64,000 nucleotides of DNA from an uncultured Candidatus Rokubacteria bacterium (GTDB taxonomy: Bacteria > Methylomirabilota > Methylomirabilia > Rokubacteriales > DASRDR01): NCBI GenBank assembly GCA_963826115.1, contig CAWGVS010000006.1, positions 256,001 to 320,000 of the forward strand, read 5' to 3'. The translations under genes were made by a program, and so were the position numbers. Under the pieces are notes generated by a model, which was given only the letters and a program-made list of their open reading frames with translations, was not told the DNA's origin and made no database searches. Below, piece by piece: positions 9,413 through 15,571 of the stretch (positions within the stretch are counted from its first letter, which is position 1; every line of letters starts with the position of its first letter).

Positions 9413-11557
9413 ATGCGGACGCTCAGCGACCTCCTCACCGAGATTCCCCGCTACCAGGCGAGCGGGGACGTCGACGTTGTCCGGCGCGCCTACGAGTTCA
9501 CCGAGGAGGTCCACCGCGGCCAGCGCCGGGTCTCGGGCGAGCCATACCACGTCCACCCGCTGGCGGTCGCCGGCCTCCTGGTCGAGTTCAAGATGGACGC
9601 CACGACCGTTGCCGCCGGCCTCCTCCACGACGTCCTGGAGGACACCGCGACCAGCAAGGACGTCCTCGTCGAGCGCTTCGGCGGCGACATCGCGGAACTC
9701 GTGGACGGGGTCACGAAGATCGGCAAGCTCGCCTTCGCGAGCCGCGAGGAGCGGCAGGCCGAGAACTTCCGCAAGATGCTGGTCGCCATGGCCCGGGACA
9801 TCCGGGTCCTCATGATCAAGCTCGCCGACCGGCTCCACAACATGCGCACGCTGCACTACCTCCCCTCCGACAAGCAGCGCGCCATCGGGCAGGAGACGCT
9901 CGACATCTACGCGCCGCTCGCCCACCGGCTCGGCATGGCGAAGGTCAAGGGCGAGCTGGAGGACCTGGCGCTCAAGGCGCTCCAGCCGGAGGCCTACGAC
10001 GACCTGCAGCGGCGGGTGGCCAAGCGTCGCCTCGAGCGCGAGGCCGAGATCAACCAGGTGATCACGATCCTCTCGGCGAAGCTGTCCGAGGTCGGGATCT
10101 CCGGCCAGATCACGGGCCGGCCGAAGCACTTCTACTCCATCTACAAGAAGATGCAGGCCGGACGCGAGTTCGACGAGATCTACGATCTCACCGCGGTCCG
10201 CATCCTCACGCCGACGGTCCGGGAGTGCTACGGCATCCTGGGGCTCGTCCACTCGCTGTGGAAGCCGGTGCCCGGCCGGTTCAAGGACTTCATCGCGATC
10301 CCGAAGTCGAACATGTACCAGTCGCTCCACACGACCGTGATCGGCCCGAAGGGCGACCCCGTCGAGATCCAGATCCGCACGCCGGACATGCACCGGATCG
10401 CCGAGGAAGGTATCGCCGCGCACTGGCTCTACAAGGAGAAGAAGGATCGGTCCGGGCTCGACCAGGCGTTCGTCTGGCTGCGGCAGCTGCTGGAGTGGCA
10501 GAAGGAGATGAAGGACCCGCGGGAGTTCATGGAGACCGTCAAGGTCGACCTGTTCCCCGACGAGGTCTACGTCTTCACGCCGAAGGGGGACGTCAAGGCG
10601 CTGCCGGAGGGCTCGACGCCCATCGACTTCGCCTACGCGGTCCACACCGAGGTCGGCAACCACTGCGCCGGGGCCCGCGTCAACGGGAAGCTCGTCCCGC
10701 TGCGGCACGTGCTCCGCCAGGGCGACATCGTGGAAGTGGTCACGTCGCCCACCCAGAGGCCCTCGCGCGACTGGCTCAAGACGGTCAAGTCCACGCGGGC
10801 GCGGTCGAAGGTCAAGCAGTGGCTCCGGATCGAGGAGCGGTCCCGCTCGGTCGCGCTGGGCCGCGAGCTCCTCGACCGCGAGGCCCGGAAGTACCGGGTC
10901 GCGCTGGCGACGATCCTCGAGGCGGAGGAGCTCCGGAAGCTCGCCGTCGAGCACGGGTACACCACCGTCGACGACCTCCTCGTGGGGCTCGGCTACGGCA
11001 AGCTGGCGGCCTCGACGGTGGTCGCCCGGTTCGTTCCCGCCGACGCGACCGCCGAGCCGCGCTCCGAGGTGAAGCCCGCGAAGCCGGCGCGCCCCCGGAC
11101 CGACACCGGAGGCGTCACCGTCAAGGGCGTGGACGACGTGCTCATCCGGTTCGCGAAGTGCTGCGGCCCCGTGCCGGGCGACCCCATCGTCGGCTTCATC
11201 ACTCGGGGCCGCGGCATCACCGTGCACGCGTCCGACTGCCCGAATCTCGCGGCCGGCGCGTTCGACAACGAGCGGACCGTGGCGGTCGAGTGGGCGGTGG
11301 CCGACCAGCAGGCGCTGCCCGTGAAGATCGCCGTGCACATCGGCCGGGACCGCCCGGGCCTGCTGGCCGACATCTCCACGGCCATCTCCTCGCGCCACGC
11401 CAACATCGTGAAGGCCGAGGTGACGGTGACCGAGGACCGCAAGGGGCTGAACCACTTCACCGTGGAGGTCAAGGATCTCGACCAGCTCCAGGGCGTCATG
11501 GGGGCGATCTCGGCCGTCAAGGACGTCATCGGGGTCGAGCGGGTCCGCGGCCTCTAG
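9413..11557 (+). CDS. relA: Bifunctional (p)ppGpp synthetase/hydrolase (long RSH)
   Basis: Intact HD motif (LLHDVLED), KLADRLHN, YQSLHT, TGS domain (FTPKG, DFAYAVHT), AKCC, C-terminal ACT. Confidence 0.95.
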   Translation: MRTLSDLLTEIPRYQASGDVDVVRRAYEFTEEVHRGQRRVSGEPYHVHPLAVAGLLVEFKMDATTVAAGLLHDVLEDTATSKDVLVERFGGDIAELVDGVTKIGKLAFASREERQAENFRKMLVAMARDIRVLMIKLADRLHNMRTLHYLPSDKQRAIGQETLDIYAPLAHRLGMAKVKGELEDLALKALQPEAYDDLQRRVAKRRLEREAEINQVITILSAKLSEVGISGQITGRPKHFYSIYKKMQAGREFDEIYDLTAVRILTPTVRECYGILGLVHSLWKPVPGRFKDFIAIPKSNMYQSLHTTVIGPKGDPVEIQIRTPDMHRIAEEGIAAHWLYKEKKDRSGLDQAFVWLRQLLEWQKEMKDPREFMETVKVDLFPDEVYVFTPKGDVKALPEGSTPIDFAYAVHTEVGNHCAGARVNGKLVPLRHVLRQGDIVEVVTSPTQRPSRDWLKTVKSTRARSKVKQWLRIEERSRSVALGRELLDREARKYRVALATILEAEELRKLAVEHGYTTVDDLLVGLGYGKLAASTVVARFVPADATAEPRSEVKPAKPARPRTDTGGVTVKGVDDVLIRFAKCCGPVPGDPIVGFITRGRGITVHASDCPNLAAGAFDNERTVAVEWAVADQQALPVKIAVHIGRDRPGLLADISTAISSRHANIVKAEVTVTEDRKGLNHFTVEVKDLDQLQGVMGAISAVKDVIGVERVRGL

Positions 11558-11585: not shown

Positions 11586-11969
11586 ATGGTCGAGATCAAC
11601 CGCAAGGAGTTCGAGGCCCTCGTGGCCCGCGCGCTCCGCCTCCTCCCGCGGCGCTTCCGCGACCGCCTCCGGAACATCGCCGTCGTCGTCGAGGATTGGG
11701 CGGACGACGACATCCTGGACGAGATGGGCATCGAGCCGCCGGACACGCTCTATGGCCTCTACCGGGGGACCGACCTCACGCGCCGCGACACCAACTACGG
11801 CAACGTGCTGCCGGACGTGATCACGATCTACCAGGGGCCGATCCAGGAAGACTGCGAGACCGTCGAGGAGATGGAGGAGCTCGTCCGGGACACGGTCGTC
11901 CACGAGGTGGGCCACTACTTCGGGCTGGACGACGAGCGGCTCGCCGAGCTGGAGGACGGGCAAGACTAG
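11586..11969 (+). CDS. Zincin-like metallopeptidase (DUF1025 type)
   Basis: LYGLYRG, PDVITIYQ, TVVHEVGHYFG (HExxH). Confidence 0.85.
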   Translation: MVEINRKEFEALVARALRLLPRRFRDRLRNIAVVVEDWADDDILDEMGIEPPDTLYGLYRGTDLTRRDTNYGNVLPDVITIYQGPIQEDCETVEEMEELVRDTVVHEVGHYFGLDDERLAELEDGQD

Positions 11970-12021: not shown

Positions 12022-13881
12022 ATGACCGCGTATCCGCTCGCCGTCCGTCAGCGGGCGCTGCTGACGTTCGTCGCGCTCAACGCGGCGGCGGCCGGGCTCC
12101 ACGCGCAGCGCTTCCTCTTCGCGGGGGACGCGATGCCGTCCGGGCTGGGGCTCGAGTTCGCCGCGACGGCGCTCCTGGCCCAGGTCGGTCTCGCGGCGCT
12201 GGTGCTCCACGCGGCGCTCGGGGCGATCGCCTTCCTGGACTCGCGGGCGATCGTCACCCGTGTCCTGGCCGCGCTCGCCTTCACGCTGGTCCACACGTTC
12301 ATCTACGTCGACGCGCGGATCTACGGCTTCTTCCGGTTCCACTTCAACGCCCTCGCGCTGAACGTGCTCCTGACGCCCGGCGGCTTCGAGTCGATGCAGC
12401 TGCCGGAGGGCGACGTGGCCATGGCGGTCGTGGGCATCGCGGTGCTGCTCGGGTTGCAGCTCCTCGGCTATTCGGCGCTCCTCCGCTGGCTCCGGACCGC
12501 GGAGTGGGGGGTCGGGCGGCGCTGGCTCGCGCTGGTCGCCACGGTGCTGGCGCTCGTTCTGGTGGAGCGGGCGACGTATGCCGCGGGGGACCTCCTCGAC
12601 ATCCCGGGCATCGCTCGCCAGACGCGCCTCATCCCGCTCTACGAGCCGCTCCGGCTCCGGGAAGTCCGGCAGCGCCTCCGGCTCCCGAGCGACCCGGCGG
12701 CGCGGGCCCGCGAGCCGGGGGAGAGCGCCCTCGACTATCCGCGCGAGCCCGTCCGGGGCGCGGTGAAGGCCGACCACCGCTGGAATGTCGTGTGGATCAT
12801 GGTCGAGTCCTGGCGCGCCGACACGTTCAGCGCGGAGAACACCCCGAACATCTGGCGCTTCTCCCGGCGCGGACAGGTCTTCCAGCAGCATCTGAGCGGC
12901 GGGCACTCGACCCGCTTCGGGATCTTCTCGGCGCTCTACGGGCTCCACGGCACTTACTGGTGGCCCTTCCTCGCCGAGGGGCGGGAGCCCGTCCTCATCG
13001 CGAAGCTGATCGAGGCCGGCTACCGGTTCCGCATCCTGTCGAGCACCTCGCTCGGCTACCCAGAGTTCCGCCAGACCGCCTTCCACTCCGTGCGGTCTGC
13101 GGTGAGCGACCGCCTGCCCGCCGCGTCGGTGGCGGAGCGGGACGTGCTCCAGGCGCAGGCGTTCGACGAGTTCCTGGAGGCGACTCCCCGGGACCAGGCC
13201 TTCTTCGCGTTCCTCTTCCTGGGGGCGCCCCACTTTCCGTTCCTCTTCACGCCGGAGCATGCGAAGTTCCTCCCCGTTCTCGAGCACCCGACGATCGCCC
13301 AGGCGCAGACCCCCGAGGGCAGCCGCCAGATGTACAACCGCTACCGGAACTCGATCCACTCCGTGGACGCGGTGGTGGGCTCGATCGTGGGCGCGCTGGA
13401 TCGGCGGGGACTCCTGGATCGATCGATCGTGGTCGTGACGGGGGACCACGGCCAGGAGTTCTACGAGCACGGGTTCTTCGGCCACGGCAGCGCCTTCACC
13501 CCGGAGCAGACGCACGTCCCGCTCGTGATGCTCGTGCCCGGGCTGCCGTTCCGCGAGCACGGGCACCTCACCCAGCACCAGGACCTGCCCGCCACGATGC
13601 TGGCGCTCCTCGGGATCGACGATCCCCCCGACCGCTACAGTCTGGGCCGGAATATGCTCGAGGGCCGGGGACGACCCTACGCCGTCGTGTGCGGCTTCCG
13701 GGAGTGCGCGCTGCAGGACGCGGACGGGTGGGTCGTCTTTGGCGTGGAAGGGAAGACCGCGCTCTCCCTCGAGGCGCGGGACCGTGACTACGTTGAGGTC
13801 CCGGACCTGGCGGCGGCGGTGGGCCGGCGCCGCGACCGGCTCCTCGCGACGATGCAGGAGATGCGCACCTTCCTGCGCTGA
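12022..13881 (+). CDS. Membrane-anchored sulfatase/alkaline-phosphatase-fold protein (YejM/PbgA-like)
   Basis: About 5 N-terminal TM segments; NVVWIMVESWRAD, HLSGGHSTRFGIFS, VTGDHGQEF. Confidence 0.75.
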   Translation: MTAYPLAVRQRALLTFVALNAAAAGLHAQRFLFAGDAMPSGLGLEFAATALLAQVGLAALVLHAALGAIAFLDSRAIVTRVLAALAFTLVHTFIYVDARIYGFFRFHFNALALNVLLTPGGFESMQLPEGDVAMAVVGIAVLLGLQLLGYSALLRWLRTAEWGVGRRWLALVATVLALVLVERATYAAGDLLDIPGIARQTRLIPLYEPLRLREVRQRLRLPSDPAARAREPGESALDYPREPVRGAVKADHRWNVVWIMVESWRADTFSAENTPNIWRFSRRGQVFQQHLSGGHSTRFGIFSALYGLHGTYWWPFLAEGREPVLIAKLIEAGYRFRILSSTSLGYPEFRQTAFHSVRSAVSDRLPAASVAERDVLQAQAFDEFLEATPRDQAFFAFLFLGAPHFPFLFTPEHAKFLPVLEHPTIAQAQTPEGSRQMYNRYRNSIHSVDAVVGSIVGALDRRGLLDRSIVVVTGDHGQEFYEHGFFGHGSAFTPEQTHVPLVMLVPGLPFREHGHLTQHQDLPATMLALLGIDDPPDRYSLGRNMLEGRGRPYAVVCGFRECALQDADGWVVFGVEGKTALSLEARDRDYVEVPDLAAAVGRRRDRLLATMQEMRTFLR

Positions 13882-13982
13882 GCCGCGGCGGCCCGGGCTG
13901 CCTGCCTCGTTCCACGGGCCGAAGGGCCAGGACATCCTTGCCCGAAGTGTCACTCCGTTGACATGCCTTCCATGTTTTGCTC

Positions 13983-14011
13983 TTGACACAACTTTCAGTG
14001 ACGGATAGGCT
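13983..14011 (+). promoter_or_regulatory. sigma70-type promoter of the AbiEi-like gene
   Basis: TTGACA (13983-88), 17-nt spacer, TAGGCT (14006-11) in an AT-enriched intergenic stretch. Confidence 0.7.
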
Positions 14012-14048
14012 TTCAGCGCACGTTGAAAATGACCGGACAAGTGAAAGT
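13992..14048. promoter_or_regulatory. Symmetric four-half-site operator (TTTCA x2 / TGAAA x2)
   Basis: TTTCA at 13993 and 14011, TGAAA at 14024 and 14042; 18-bp period on each side and a shared symmetry centre at 14019.5. Confidence 0.6.
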
Positions 14049-15101
14049 ATGGTTCGGATTGCAGAATTCAAGAAGGACGCCGCGGAGCGGCTTCGCGCCC
14101 TCTTTCCGCAAGTGGCTGAATGGCAAGAGTCTCTAGATGCGACCGTCGGCGACCAGACGGTGGATGTGCTCGTCCGGTTCCGGATGGGGCCCGGCCAGGA
14201 GACCAAGACACTGATCTGTGAGGCTCGTACCCGGGGTGAGCCCCGGCACCTCCGCGAGGCCGTAACCCGACTTCGAGAGCTCCGGGGCCATGTCCCGGGG
14301 GCCTACCCCCTGGTGGCGGCGCCCTACGTGACCGCCCAGTCCTCGGCCCTCCTGCGCCGGAATGGCTGCGGCTACCTCGACCTGGCCGGCAACTGCTACC
14401 TCGCCTTCGACAACGTCCTCATCCAGAAGGAAGGGCGCCCCAACGCGGGACTGGTCCGCCGTCCCCTCAAGGCCCTGTTCGCGCCGCGGGCGACGCGGAT
14501 CGTCCGCGCCCTCCTGGTGGAGCGGGACCGCGCCTGGCGCCTCGACGAGCTGGGCCGGGCGGTCGGCGTCAGCCTCGGCCACGCCCACAACGTGGTGAAG
14601 CGCCTCGAGGAGCTCGACTGGGTGGAGCGGGGGCGGGACGGGCTCTACCGGCTGCCGCGGCCCGGGGACCTGCTCGACGCCTGGCGCGACGGGTATCGCT
14701 ACCGCGTCAACGGGCTGAGCGCCTTCGTCTCCCCGGCGGGAGACAAGCGCCGGATCATGGAGGCCCTTGCGCGGCACGCGACCGAGCTGGGCGTGACCTA
14801 CGCGTTCACGCTCCACGCGGGCGCGTCCCTCATCGGCCCGCACACGCGTGTCTCCACGGTGCACTGCTACGTGAGCGGCGACACCGAGGCGCTCATCCGG
14901 GCCCTCGGGCTCCAGCCGGTCGAGGGCGAGGGCGCGGTCTACCTGATGGCTCCGTACGACCCGGGCGTGTTCTACGCGCCGGTGGTCAAGGGCGGGTTCC
15001 GGGTGGTCAGTCTCCCGCAGCTCTACGTGGACCTCTACGGCCACGAGCGGCGCGGGCGCGAGCAGGCCGAGAAGCTCCGTCGCGACGCGATGGGGTTCTA
15101 G
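14049..15101 (+). CDS. AbiEi-like type IV TA antitoxin family regulator (DUF2186/AbiEi_2-like; degenerate PD-(D/E)xK N-domain plus wHTH)
   Basis: PLVAAPYV...GYLDLAGNCYL; HTH segment LDELGRAVGVSLGHAHNVVKRL; DLLDAWR; VVSLPQLYVDL..RGREQAE; ATG at 14049 lies downstream of the promoter. Confidence 0.75.
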   Translation: MVRIAEFKKDAAERLRALFPQVAEWQESLDATVGDQTVDVLVRFRMGPGQETKTLICEARTRGEPRHLREAVTRLRELRGHVPGAYPLVAAPYVTAQSSALLRRNGCGYLDLAGNCYLAFDNVLIQKEGRPNAGLVRRPLKALFAPRATRIVRALLVERDRAWRLDELGRAVGVSLGHAHNVVKRLEELDWVERGRDGLYRLPRPGDLLDAWRDGYRYRVNGLSAFVSPAGDKRRIMEALARHATELGVTYAFTLHAGASLIGPHTRVSTVHCYVSGDTEALIRALGLQPVEGEGAVYLMAPYDPGVFYAPVVKGGFRVVSLPQLYVDLYGHERRGREQAEKLRRDAMGF

Positions 15102-15134
15102 CCGCGCTCACGCGAGCGGAAGGAGGTGAGCACG

Positions 15135-15170
15135 ATGGCGAAGAAGAAGGCGGCGAAGAAGAAGAAGTAA
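15135..15170 (+). CDS. 11-aa lysine-rich micropeptide MAKKKAAKKKK (copy 1)
   Basis: SD AAGGAGGTGA (15120-29); ATG GCG AAG AAG AAG GCG GCG AAG AAG AAG AAG TAA. Confidence 0.75.
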   Translation: MAKKKAAKKKK

Positions 15171-15246
15171 CGTCGTCAGCGGTGTCGCTCGAAGGGGGTG
15201 CAGCCCCTTCGCGGAACCCAGACGTCACGAGGGGAGGTGATGATCG

Positions 15247-15282
15247 ATGGCGAAGAAGAAGGCGGCCAAGAAGAAGAAGTAG
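15247..15282 (+). CDS. 11-aa lysine-rich micropeptide MAKKKAAKKKK (copy 2)
   Basis: SD GGAGGTGAT (15233-41); differs from copy 1 only by GCG/GCC and TAA/TAG, both synonymous. Confidence 0.75.
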   Translation: MAKKKAAKKKK

Positions 15283-15342
15283 GGTGCTGTGACGGGGTCA
15301 GGGGACGAGGCCAGCCCTGACCCTTCTGGTACTGTCAGCGCA

Positions 15343-15375
15343 GGCCGCCGGGGGCGACTGGCACCCCCGGCGGCC
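15343..15375. terminator. 12-bp GC hairpin between the convergent micropeptide unit and rpmB
   Basis: GGCCGCCGGGGG-N9-CCCCCGGCGGCC; no clear U-tract on either strand. Confidence 0.45.
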
Positions 15376-15379
15376 GGTC

Positions 15380-15571
15380 CTAGACGGCCTTGGTGACCTT
15401 GCCGCCCCGCAGGCAGCGTGTGCAGACGCGGACCCGCTTGGCTCGGCCCTTCACGACCGCCCGCATCGATACCAGGTTCGGCAGCCATCGGCGCGAGGAC
15501 ACGTTGTGCGCGTGGCTGATCTGGTTGCCCACGACGGGACCCTTCCCACACACATCACAGCGTTGGGCCAT
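15380..15571 (-). CDS. rpmB: 50S ribosomal protein bL28
   Basis: MAQRCDVCGKGPVVGNQISHAHNVSSRRWLPNL...VCTRCLR; commonly found next to recG. Confidence 0.95.
   Translation of the reverse strand: MAQRCDVCGKGPVVGNQISHAHNVSSRRWLPNLVSMRAVVKGRAKRVRVCTRCLRGGKVTKAV

Follow-up and report, generated by a model that had tools for sequence, protein, structure and literature searches.

Introduction

The AbiE systems, type IV toxin-antitoxin (TA) modules defined by an AbiEi regulator (PF09952) and an AbiEii toxin (PF08843), are known to be autoregulated by AbiEi through inverted repeats in the promoter. Here we describe a related locus in a 64,000-nucleotide (nt) stretch from an uncultured Candidatus Rokubacteria bacterium (GenBank assembly GCA_963826115.1, contig CAWGVS010000006.1, positions 256,001 to 320,000 of the forward strand; hereafter the window), in which the regulator gene is followed by two tandem open reading frames (ORFs) of 11 codons, each encoding the peptide MAKKKAAKKKK and referred to below as micro-ORFs. 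The likeness to AbiE lies in the regulator family, in the position of the regulator gene at the head of the unit, in inverted repeats that, at the level of sequence, lie over the start of the regulator's promoter, and in homologues from sister orders of the class that keep the full pair. The locus differs in that both it and the genome lack AbiEii, with tandem polylysine micro-ORFs in the toxin position; in a predicted additional N-terminal domain of PD-(D/E)xK fold; and in being a near-universal core gene with fixed synteny in the window's order, patchy only in the sister orders that keep the toxin. Our leading, though tentative, explanation is that an orphan AbiEi_2 regulator has been domesticated and shares its transcript with genes whose products are polycationic micro-peptides of the cytoplasm.

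The nearest analogies of these micro-peptides are the tiny polybasic ribosomal proteins, such as mycobacterial bL37, bS22, Thermus Thx and eukaryotic and archaeal eL41. The two groups share a size class of 11-28 amino acids (aa), an extreme content of Lys and Arg, a strong Shine-Dalgarno (SD) sequence, a location beside a ribosomal protein gene (in the window's order) and the lack of annotation that comes with their length. The micro-peptides differ in being shorter, in consisting of Lys and Ala only and in having two or three copies per genome; moreover, their ORFs are convergent to rpmB, the gene for ribosomal protein L28, rather than part of a ribosomal protein operon, and in the sister orders they are not near rpmB.

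Results

Lysine-rich micro-ORFs follow the regulator in all related loci

The unit spans positions 13983-15381 of the window and, as read from the sequence and the ORF listing, comprises a promoter with a palindromic operator, a gene for a 350-aa winged helix-turn-helix (wHTH) protein, two SD-led ORFs and hairpins (Table 1). The first-pass annotation of this DNA had named a promoter, a symmetric operator, the 350-aa gene, two units of SD, MAKKKAAKKKK and hairpin, and a closing hairpin; all were found in place, and AAG does account for seven of the 11 codons in both micro-ORFs, as it had stated. The presence of polylysine micro-ORFs by the regulator is not due to chance: the 35-nt ORF pattern has two matches in the window and none in 100 shuffles, and the whole 6.24-Mb genome, at 72% G+C, holds just six ORFs of 6-45 codons with at least 40% Lys. 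The SD-led members of these six are the two window ORFs, the first of which counts again with a GTG start further upstream, and a third copy that lies on a different contig.

A profile-guided scan of one genome per species yielded 80 related loci, with 90-52% identity to the regulator; public records name the homologues Candidatus Rokubacteria or Methylomirabilota. The annotation had suggested that the regions downstream of homologues be scanned for SD-led, Lys-rich ORFs, and all 80 loci carry them: between one and three lie between the regulator stop codon and the next gene, each with an SD-like GGAGGTGA or GGGGGTGA about 4-9 nt upstream. The next gene is the convergent rpmB in 77 of the 80, and the other three contigs end before it. 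A stricter SD filter, applied to the 77 loci that hold both regulator and rpmB and giving lower bounds, counted two micro-ORFs in 57 loci, one in 18 and three in two. Strong structure follows the last micro-ORF in all 77 folded loci (-44 to -140 kcal/mol for the rest of the spacer). Between the micro-ORFs, the spacer of many other lineages is 40-50 nt long and folds at only -8 to -15 kcal/mol, and thus the long hairpin after micro-ORF 1 is a genus-level feature; the repeated unit of SD, ORF and long hairpin holds for both copies in the window, but the hairpin after the first ORF is not conserved beyond the genus.

The wider distribution of regulator and micro-ORFs was tallied in 251 genomes of the phylum, five of them unpublished and used for these counts only, not for loci or sequences. 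The regulator profile matches 175 of the 182 genomes of the window's order (20/20 and 152/159 in its two large families and 3/3 in three others), mostly once per genome and with E values of about 1e-150 to 1e-200, and throughout the order the locus keeps its synteny with rpmB and recG. In the sister orders the matches are patchy and weaker (6/21, 2/15, 3/6, 1/2, 1/20, 0/2, 0/1 and 0/1). A degenerate micro-ORF pattern (GGTGA, 7-14 nt, three Lys codons, 3-9 nt, three Lys codons) is present in 182 of the 251 genomes, with a single match in total for the reversed control. By family it matches 20/20, 151/159, 1/1, 0/1 and 0/1 genomes within the window's order; among the sister orders it is found in three families (3/21, 4/15 and 2/6) and in 0/26 genomes of five others, one of which accounts for 0/20. 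Without the five unpublished genomes the tallies are 177/246 for the pattern and 185/246 for the regulator profile. The pattern has no match in 2.9 million viral contigs.

The micro-ORFs have the signature of coding sequence

Coding statistics were drawn from 154 micro-ORFs of the 80 loci. They start with ATG (125), GTG (27) or TTG (2), and the distance from an upstream ...GTGA to the start codon is 4-9 nt in 143 of them; the commonest SD core, AAGGAGGTGA, is shared by 66. Their lengths range from 10 to 28 codons and vary by whole codons. Within the genus, the peptide of 14 other genomes reads MAKKKA(A/T)KKKK; beyond it the last ORF typically encodes MAKKKKAAKKKKK, MAKKKAAKKKKK or MKKKAKKKKK, and the first is often longer, as in MPKRKKAVKKGGKKKATKKGKRK. 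The peptides are composed of Lys (64%), Ala (19%), Arg (6%), Gly (5%) and Thr (3%), with Val, Pro, Met, Ser and His at about 1% or less each and Phe and Ile once each. Asp and Glu appear in none of the 154, and the net charge is about +0.66 per residue. Arg stands in place of Lys 128 times, and in 84 of these cases the codon is a CGN codon, more than one base change away from AAG. Ala is encoded by GCG (231), GCC (137), GCA (26) and GCT (13).

Lys is encoded by AAG 1266 times and by AAA 71 times, which puts AAG at 95% versus about 84% in the neighbouring gene, and AGR codons make up 34% of the Arg codons versus 5% in that gene. The stop codons are TAG in 98 micro-ORFs, TAA in 55 and TGA in one (counts that are not phylogenetically independent); a crude genome background of 3758 long ORFs has TGA 2358, TAG 1282 and TAA 118 times. 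TAA and TAG interchange among close relatives, and TGA does not appear. This avoidance of TGA could stem from release-factor choice, from the avoidance of read-through or from a bias of highly expressed genes.

The spacers and hairpin sequences are not conserved between loci, unlike start, frame, stop and SD. Because these four features (the SD being near-perfect) and the charge are kept while length and codons vary, the pattern of substitution indicates that the micro-ORFs are most likely translated. Both micro-ORF loci gave no match to Rfam 15 covariance models at E<=5. In the literature we found nothing that describes such peptides, although small-ORF catalogues in supplements may hold them. 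A type I toxin peptide would be small, hydrophobic and membrane-active, which a composition dominated by Lys, Ala and Arg does not match.

The toxin gene is missing in the window's order and kept in sister orders

No match to AbiEii (PF08843) exists in the window's 99%-complete genome, in a search that was positive in three of 14 control genomes, and downstream of the regulator there is no nucleotidyltransferase toxin gene, only the two 11-codon ORFs and the convergent rpmB. All five sister-order homologues, on the other hand, are followed directly, within 16 nt or with an overlap, by a gene for a protein of 275-295 aa, and none has a Lys-rich ORF downstream. Four of the five downstream genes were scanned for PF08843 (the fifth contig is cut): two passed the cut-off (E 3e-5 and 5e-6), and two gave weak scores (E 8e-3 and 9e-3). 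Since these homologues keep an AbiEii-like partner, we regard the family as a true AbiEi_2 antitoxin family that has become an orphan core gene in the window's order. The absence of a nucleotidyltransferase toxin, first noted for the locus, thus extends to the genome, and micro-ORFs take the toxin's place in 80/80 loci. A normal toxin gene behind the homologues had been named as evidence against a distinct module; such a gene, AbiEii-like, is present in all five sister-order loci and in 0/80 loci of the window's order.

By sequence comparison the window regulator is a member of the AbiEi_2 family (formerly DUF2186), as the annotation had supposed. Of 18 aligned homologues, 17 match PF09952 (best E 1.7e-8; 57-90% identity to the window protein), the window protein being the exception, and two sister-order homologues match it with E 2.7e-17 and 3.1e-8 over profile positions 1-142 of 143. 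The window protein itself matches only generic wHTH models in Pfam (HTH_IclR, E 8e-6, residues 155-194), and an NCBIfam scan of it returned nothing. Its AlphaFold (AF2) model (mean predicted local distance difference test score 73.7, predicted template modelling score 0.40) falls into three parts. The N-terminal alpha/beta domain is predicted to resemble PD-(D/E)xK nucleases (Z 11.4 for AF1548, 10.3 for PaqCI and 9.9 for NucS; Foldseek E 2e-4 for EndoMS); a winged helix is modelled at residues 146-200; and the C-terminal domain, residues 205-350, corresponds to the AbiEi_2 model, its fold having barely been probed by the structure searches.

Residues 1-127 (14049-14430) also resemble nuclease domains of the Can2/Card1 type. 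In the N-terminal domain D39 never varies and E58 hardly does; the position of the usual Lys, which is not conserved, mostly holds Arg, and the domain may be an inactive sensor or a DNA-binding domain. Some further matches of the regulator were set aside. For the C-terminal domain, one Foldseek row to a nucleotidyltransferase-like protein has a root-mean-square deviation of 11 and is not relied on. The PADLOC matches (PDC-M05A, E 0.0027, 15.6 bits; Csa3, E 0.016, 13.3 bits) cover only the wHTH stretch at residues ~140-212 and are not counted.

A conserved palindrome lies over the predicted transcription start

The ~100 nt upstream of the regulator are conserved in 76 related regions and contain, in order, a run of T, TTGACA (TTGACT or TTGACG in a few), 17-18 nt with an embedded (C/T)TTTCA, a -10 position of the form TAnnnT (TATGGT, TATTGT, TAAGGT) and the palindrome TTTCAGC-N4-GCTGAAA. 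GTGAAA(C/G) is kept 1-3 nt before the regulator ATG, and the regulator start has no canonical SD. An invariant palindrome with a free 4-nt centre over the transcription start has the look of a site for a dimeric repressor, and the regulator probably represses its own promoter via TTTCAGC-N4-G(C/T)TGAAA. At up to one mismatch the central palindrome is the sole site in the 6.24-Mb genome; a regulon search of the whole genome at two mismatches gave matches near the rate of the reversed-pattern control. The promoter under a symmetric operator proposed in the first reading is therefore deeply conserved and unique, at the level of sequence. A simple consensus promoter scanner made no call at the TTGACA/TAGGCT site, because the -10 matches at only three of six positions.

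Two other repeats were seen. A related perfect palindrome, TTACAGC-N4-GCTGTAA, occurs in two copies elsewhere in the genome (contig C1, 59055-59072 and 99397-99414), which a different regulator may bind. At 13958-13972, 25 nt upstream of the -35 hexamer, there is a second direct repeat with TTGACA, TTGACATGCCTTCCA; it is present in some but not all members of the genus and may serve as another promoter or as an additional binding site.

RNA-library contigs bridge the regulator and the micro-ORFs

The gap between the regulator stop codon and the start of the first micro-ORF is typically 19-37 nt among the related loci and is 33 bases in the window. In the 3' end of the regulator gene there is no consensus promoter site and no constrained synonymous site over the last 50 codons; third positions vary there in the ordinary way, which argues that no conserved promoter hides in them. 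Small shares of the stretch are held by 24 RNA-library runs, of which four, from four soil or sediment studies, were examined, all as assembled contigs. Two contigs bridge the 3' end of the regulator and micro-ORF 1 (14932-15147 with one mismatch, 15038-15211 with two), and one, an exact match at 15182-15274, bridges hairpin 1 and micro-ORF 2. Word depth over 15020-15315 far exceeds that over the regulator body or rpmB, a figure that sums related organisms and cannot rank expression. Several contigs begin near 15022-15056, and none of those examined covers 15316-15374; assembled contigs say nothing firm about transcript ends. Co-transcription, which the annotation had marked for checking, is in this way supported by assembled contigs that run from the regulator into the micro-ORFs, and we infer that these genes share a transcript.

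The micro-ORFs form a distinct gene family

The third copy in the window's genome (contig C5, near position 1098947; 1400-1620 of the extracted locus) encodes MAKKKATKKKK and is preceded by TTGACA-N17-TAGCAT, a leader of about 55 nt and GGAGGAGGTGA and followed by a strong hairpin. It lies between a divergent gene for a B12-binding radical-SAM protein (DUF4070) and a gene for an EamA-type transporter. This singleton locus recurs in six further loci of the same genus, and a comparable singleton was present in 10/10 singleton loci fetched from other genera. There the radical-SAM gene beside it, again divergent, is only ~25% identical and, given this low identity, may not be the same gene; the gene that follows is mostly a convergent nrdR-glyA, with an EamA gene inserted in 2/10, and the hairpin stem GGCCCTGTCG...CGACAGGGCC is conserved. 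The singletons have no regulator alongside and nothing downstream to control. Micro-ORFs with a promoter of their own that occur independently of the AbiEi-like gene had been listed as evidence against a coupled module: the third micro-ORF is of this kind, and for the ORFs of the main locus no promoter of their own was found.

In the sister orders, all six tandem micro-ORF loci fetched lie away from both the regulator and rpmB. They follow, at a distance of 50-100 nt, an overlapping gene pair for a 186-aa wHTH protein of the ArsR/HVO_A0114 type and a 149-aa protein with a HEPN domain (PF05168, E 1.2e-4 and 4.8e-5, just above the cut-off). This pair, which carries a TTGACA promoter-like site of its own as well as a GTTGA...TCAAC inverted repeat, is absent from the window's genome. 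No homology was detected between the window regulator and the sister-order wHTH protein (hhalign probability 0.3), and the two upstream regulators are accordingly treated as unrelated beyond a generic wHTH. The arrangement of wHTH and HEPN-domain genes ahead of the micro-ORFs resembles gene pairs of the HEPN/MNT type; it differs from the window's case in that the window's genome has no such pair and its regulator shows no detected homology. A GxxG...IDVLV stretch in the C-terminal domain of the 186-aa protein looks like a minimal nucleotidyltransferase; in this protein Pfam and Foldseek show only an ArsR-type wHTH. The micro-ORFs are thus a gene family in their own right, independent of the regulator.

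Metagenome-assembled genomes labelled Nitrosocosmicus, Limnocylindria, Deferrimicrobiaceae, Eisenbacteria, Dormiibacterota, Acidoferrum, Binatia and Verrucomicrobiia also carry a Rokubacteria-type locus with the same synteny (nine loci). The labels are probably wrong, because the synteny is the same and the singleton locus was present on another contig in the five checked.

Layout of the locus and neighbouring genes

The features of the window locus are collected in Table 1. The GC-rich hairpin shared with the convergent rpmB is a probable bidirectional terminator. Pfam identifies a Sulfatase/DUF3413 gene upstream (E 1.4e-32) and Ribosomal_L28 and RecG genes downstream. The upstream genes are ordinary: the DUF3413 and Sulfatase membrane protein lies at 12022-13881 and a Zincin_1 metallopeptidase at 11586-11969, and a long ORF at 9413-11557 resembles RelA/SpoT, as judged from its translation without a family scan.

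Table 1. Features of the regulator and micro-ORF locus, in window positions.
Feature	Position	Strand or placement	Basis or remark
-35 hexamer TTGACA	13983-13988	+	read from sequence; kept in nearly all 76 related upstream regions
Outer operator half-site ACTTTCA	13991-13997	within promoter spacer	inverted repeat; (C/T)TTTCA recurs there in related loci
-10-like hexamer TAGGCT	14006-14011	+	17-nt spacer from -35
Central palindrome TTTCAGC-GCAC-GTTGAAA	14011-14028	over likely transcription start	predicted operator
Outer operator half-site TGAAAGT	14042-14048	ends at regulator ATG	inverted repeat
350-aa regulator; predicted PD-(D/E)xK-fold N-domain, winged HTH, AbiEi_2-type C-domain	14049-15101	+	ORF listing
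Shine-Dalgarno AAGGAGGTGA of micro-ORF 1	15120-15129	+	5 nt 5' of ATG
Micro-ORF 1, MAKKKAAKKKK, stop TAA	15135-15170	+	ATG GCG (AAG)3 GCG GCG (AAG)4 TAA
Hairpin after micro-ORF 1	15174-15224	+	RNA folding; core stem 15191-15210
Shine-Dalgarno GGGGAGGTGA of micro-ORF 2	15232-15241	+	N5, then start codon
Micro-ORF 2, MAKKKAAKKKK, stop TAG	15247-15282	+	same peptide as micro-ORF 1
Hairpin after micro-ORF 2	15283-15333	+	RNA folding; -27 kcal/mol
GC-rich hairpin	15337-15381	shared with convergent rpmB	RNA folding; -33.9 kcal/mol; overlaps rpmB stop codon
rpmB (ribosomal protein L28)	15380-15571	-	convergent neighbour; Pfam Ribosomal_L28, E 2.4e-21

Discussion

Our analysis suggests a model in which the locus forms an operon of three genes that is conserved in the window's order of Methylomirabilota (Rokubacteria). 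An AbiEi_2-family winged-helix protein would have lost its AbiEii partner and become a fixed chromosomal gene, mostly with one match per genome, that probably still represses its own promoter through the palindrome over the transcription start. The same transcript would carry one to three very short ORFs, each with a near-perfect SD, and then strong hairpins. We propose that these ORFs are translated far better than the SD-poor regulator, giving products of 10-28 residues made of Lys and Ala with some Arg, Gly and Thr; as the regulator lacks a good SD, the operon would yield little regulator and much peptide. The product that matters would be the peptide itself, whose family also occurs free-standing and behind a different regulator pair in the sister orders. 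With at least eight positive charges in 10-13 residues, and with no hydrophobic face or signal sequence, the peptides may act as genetically encoded cytoplasmic polycations with polyanions as their partners, the candidates being ribosomes or rRNA, other RNA, DNA and polyphosphate. Among the options raised at the outset this corresponds to a domesticated regulator of nucleic-acid- or ribosome-binding peptides; the domestication is supported by the loss of the toxin, and for the binding part charge is the guide.

Several points weigh against this explanation. The window regulator has no match to Pfam AbiEi_2 (PF09952) even at E<=1. Translation, and with it the peptide, is read from patterns of sequence, and the proposed binding from charge. 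Eight peptides of 20-25 aa matched no family of NCBIfam or Pfam at E<=10, in searches where composition filters may hide weak matches, and one 23-aa peptide had no match among PDB sequences, the 11-aa peptides being too short for such tools; these searches of longer peptides likewise placed none in a ribosomal protein family. The micro-ORFs and rpmB are neighbours in convergent orientation only, and in the sister orders not at all. The AAG bias and the excess of AGR codons imply that some constraint at the nucleotide level, or a recent change of Lys to Arg, is also at work. The assembled metatranscriptome contigs carry no strand, end or level, sum related organisms and could include DNA carry-over; we take them as presence in RNA libraries and as support for co-transcription, no further. 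The distribution survey was confined to this class. Finally, the micro-ORFs trail two unrelated TA-type operons, which could mean a tighter coupling than that of a regulator and its cargo.

This last point leads to an alternative that we consider unlikely but worth keeping in view, namely that the polylysine micro-peptides are a new effector or read-out wedded to TA-type operons, where the peptide, or its translation in a manner dependent on the Lys codons, would take over from a toxin directed at translation or add to it. It could, for example, throttle translation as a polycation bound to ribosomes or tRNA, or serve as a built-in report on tRNA-Lys or on the integrity of CCA ends. It is the combination of two unrelated TA-type operons with the AAG bias, the AGR excess and the avoidance of TGA that keeps open a closer link to translation-targeting systems.

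A purely translational sensor, the third option of the first-pass annotation, we judge improbable. Here the act of translating the AAG run, or of terminating at UAG or UAA, would matter rather than the product, reporting on the supply of Lys-tRNA, on tRNA integrity or on release-factor-1 activity and tuning the stability of the operon mRNA. The predominance of AAG among the Lys codons, the almost pure Lys of second-position ORFs and a TGA stop in 1/154 micro-ORFs, though TGA is the commonest stop of the genome, would fit such a sensor, as would the fact that both operon types that carry micro-ORFs belong to TA families, whose toxins target tRNA or mRNA. The micro-ORFs also recall attenuator leader peptides (trpL, hisL and similar), which are likewise very short SD-led ORFs that repeat one codon and run directly into a hairpin. 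They differ from these leaders in having no alternative antiterminator pairing and no co-directional gene downstream (rpmB is convergent at the main locus and nrdR at most singletons), and in their position, at the 3' end of an operon or alone rather than in a leader. The free-standing copy would thus be a sensor without an output, and many first-position ORFs exchange Lys for Arg, Gly, Thr or Val, with Arg encoded by CGN codons.

We think it distinctly improbable that the locus is an active TA or defence-like module, the first option of that annotation, in which the polycationic peptide is a harmful effector that the AbiEi-like protein restrains by transcriptional repression. This idea draws on the membership of the regulator in the AbiEi_2 antitoxin family, on micro-ORFs that lie exactly where the sister-order homologues have AbiEii, on sister-order tandem micro-ORFs behind a wHTH and HEPN pair, which is another TA-type operon, and on an operator whose uniqueness in the genome points to tight and local control. 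It sits poorly with a regulator that is near-universal (175/182 genomes), mostly single and syntenic (77/80 loci with rpmB), unlike mobile and patchy TA genes, and with a third micro-ORF that has a strong promoter-like site and no regulator alongside. Nor do the peptides have any hydrophobic or membrane-active character; PADLOC gave nothing meaningful for the regulator, and the micro-ORF pattern is missing from the viral contigs searched.

Least probable is a non-coding role, in which the ~300-nt region after the regulator would serve as a protein sponge or as an abundant small RNA derived from the 3' end, the ORFs being incidental: the RNA-library contigs over 15020-15315 in four studies (of high summed depth, not rankable) and a fold better than that of shuffled sequences (z = -3.0, 1/200 shuffles as good) speak for it, and it is opposed by AAG tracts that are unpaired in that fold, by the lack of Rfam matches, by synonymous and conservative replacements and in-frame length changes, and by the conservation of start, frame, stop and SD spacing where spacers, hairpin sequences and even the presence of the inter-ORF hairpin are not kept.

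Returning to the domesticated regulator and its micro-peptides, the components lend themselves to study: the regulator, its 18-bp operator and synthetic peptides of 11 residues allow easy tests in vitro without culturing the organism, and a genetically encoded oligolysine has practical appeal as a natural peptide for condensing nucleic acids or binding ribosomes. If they are made, the micro-peptides would to our knowledge be the products of some of the shortest conserved free-standing protein-coding genes in bacteria (10-13 codons). These genes are fixed across an order of abundant, uncultured soil bacteria and are invisible to gene callers. The locus would be a clean natural case of an antitoxin that has outlived its toxin and been rewired to control something else, and the presence of the same micro-ORFs behind two TA-type operons offers a testable handle on the role of such domesticated regulators.

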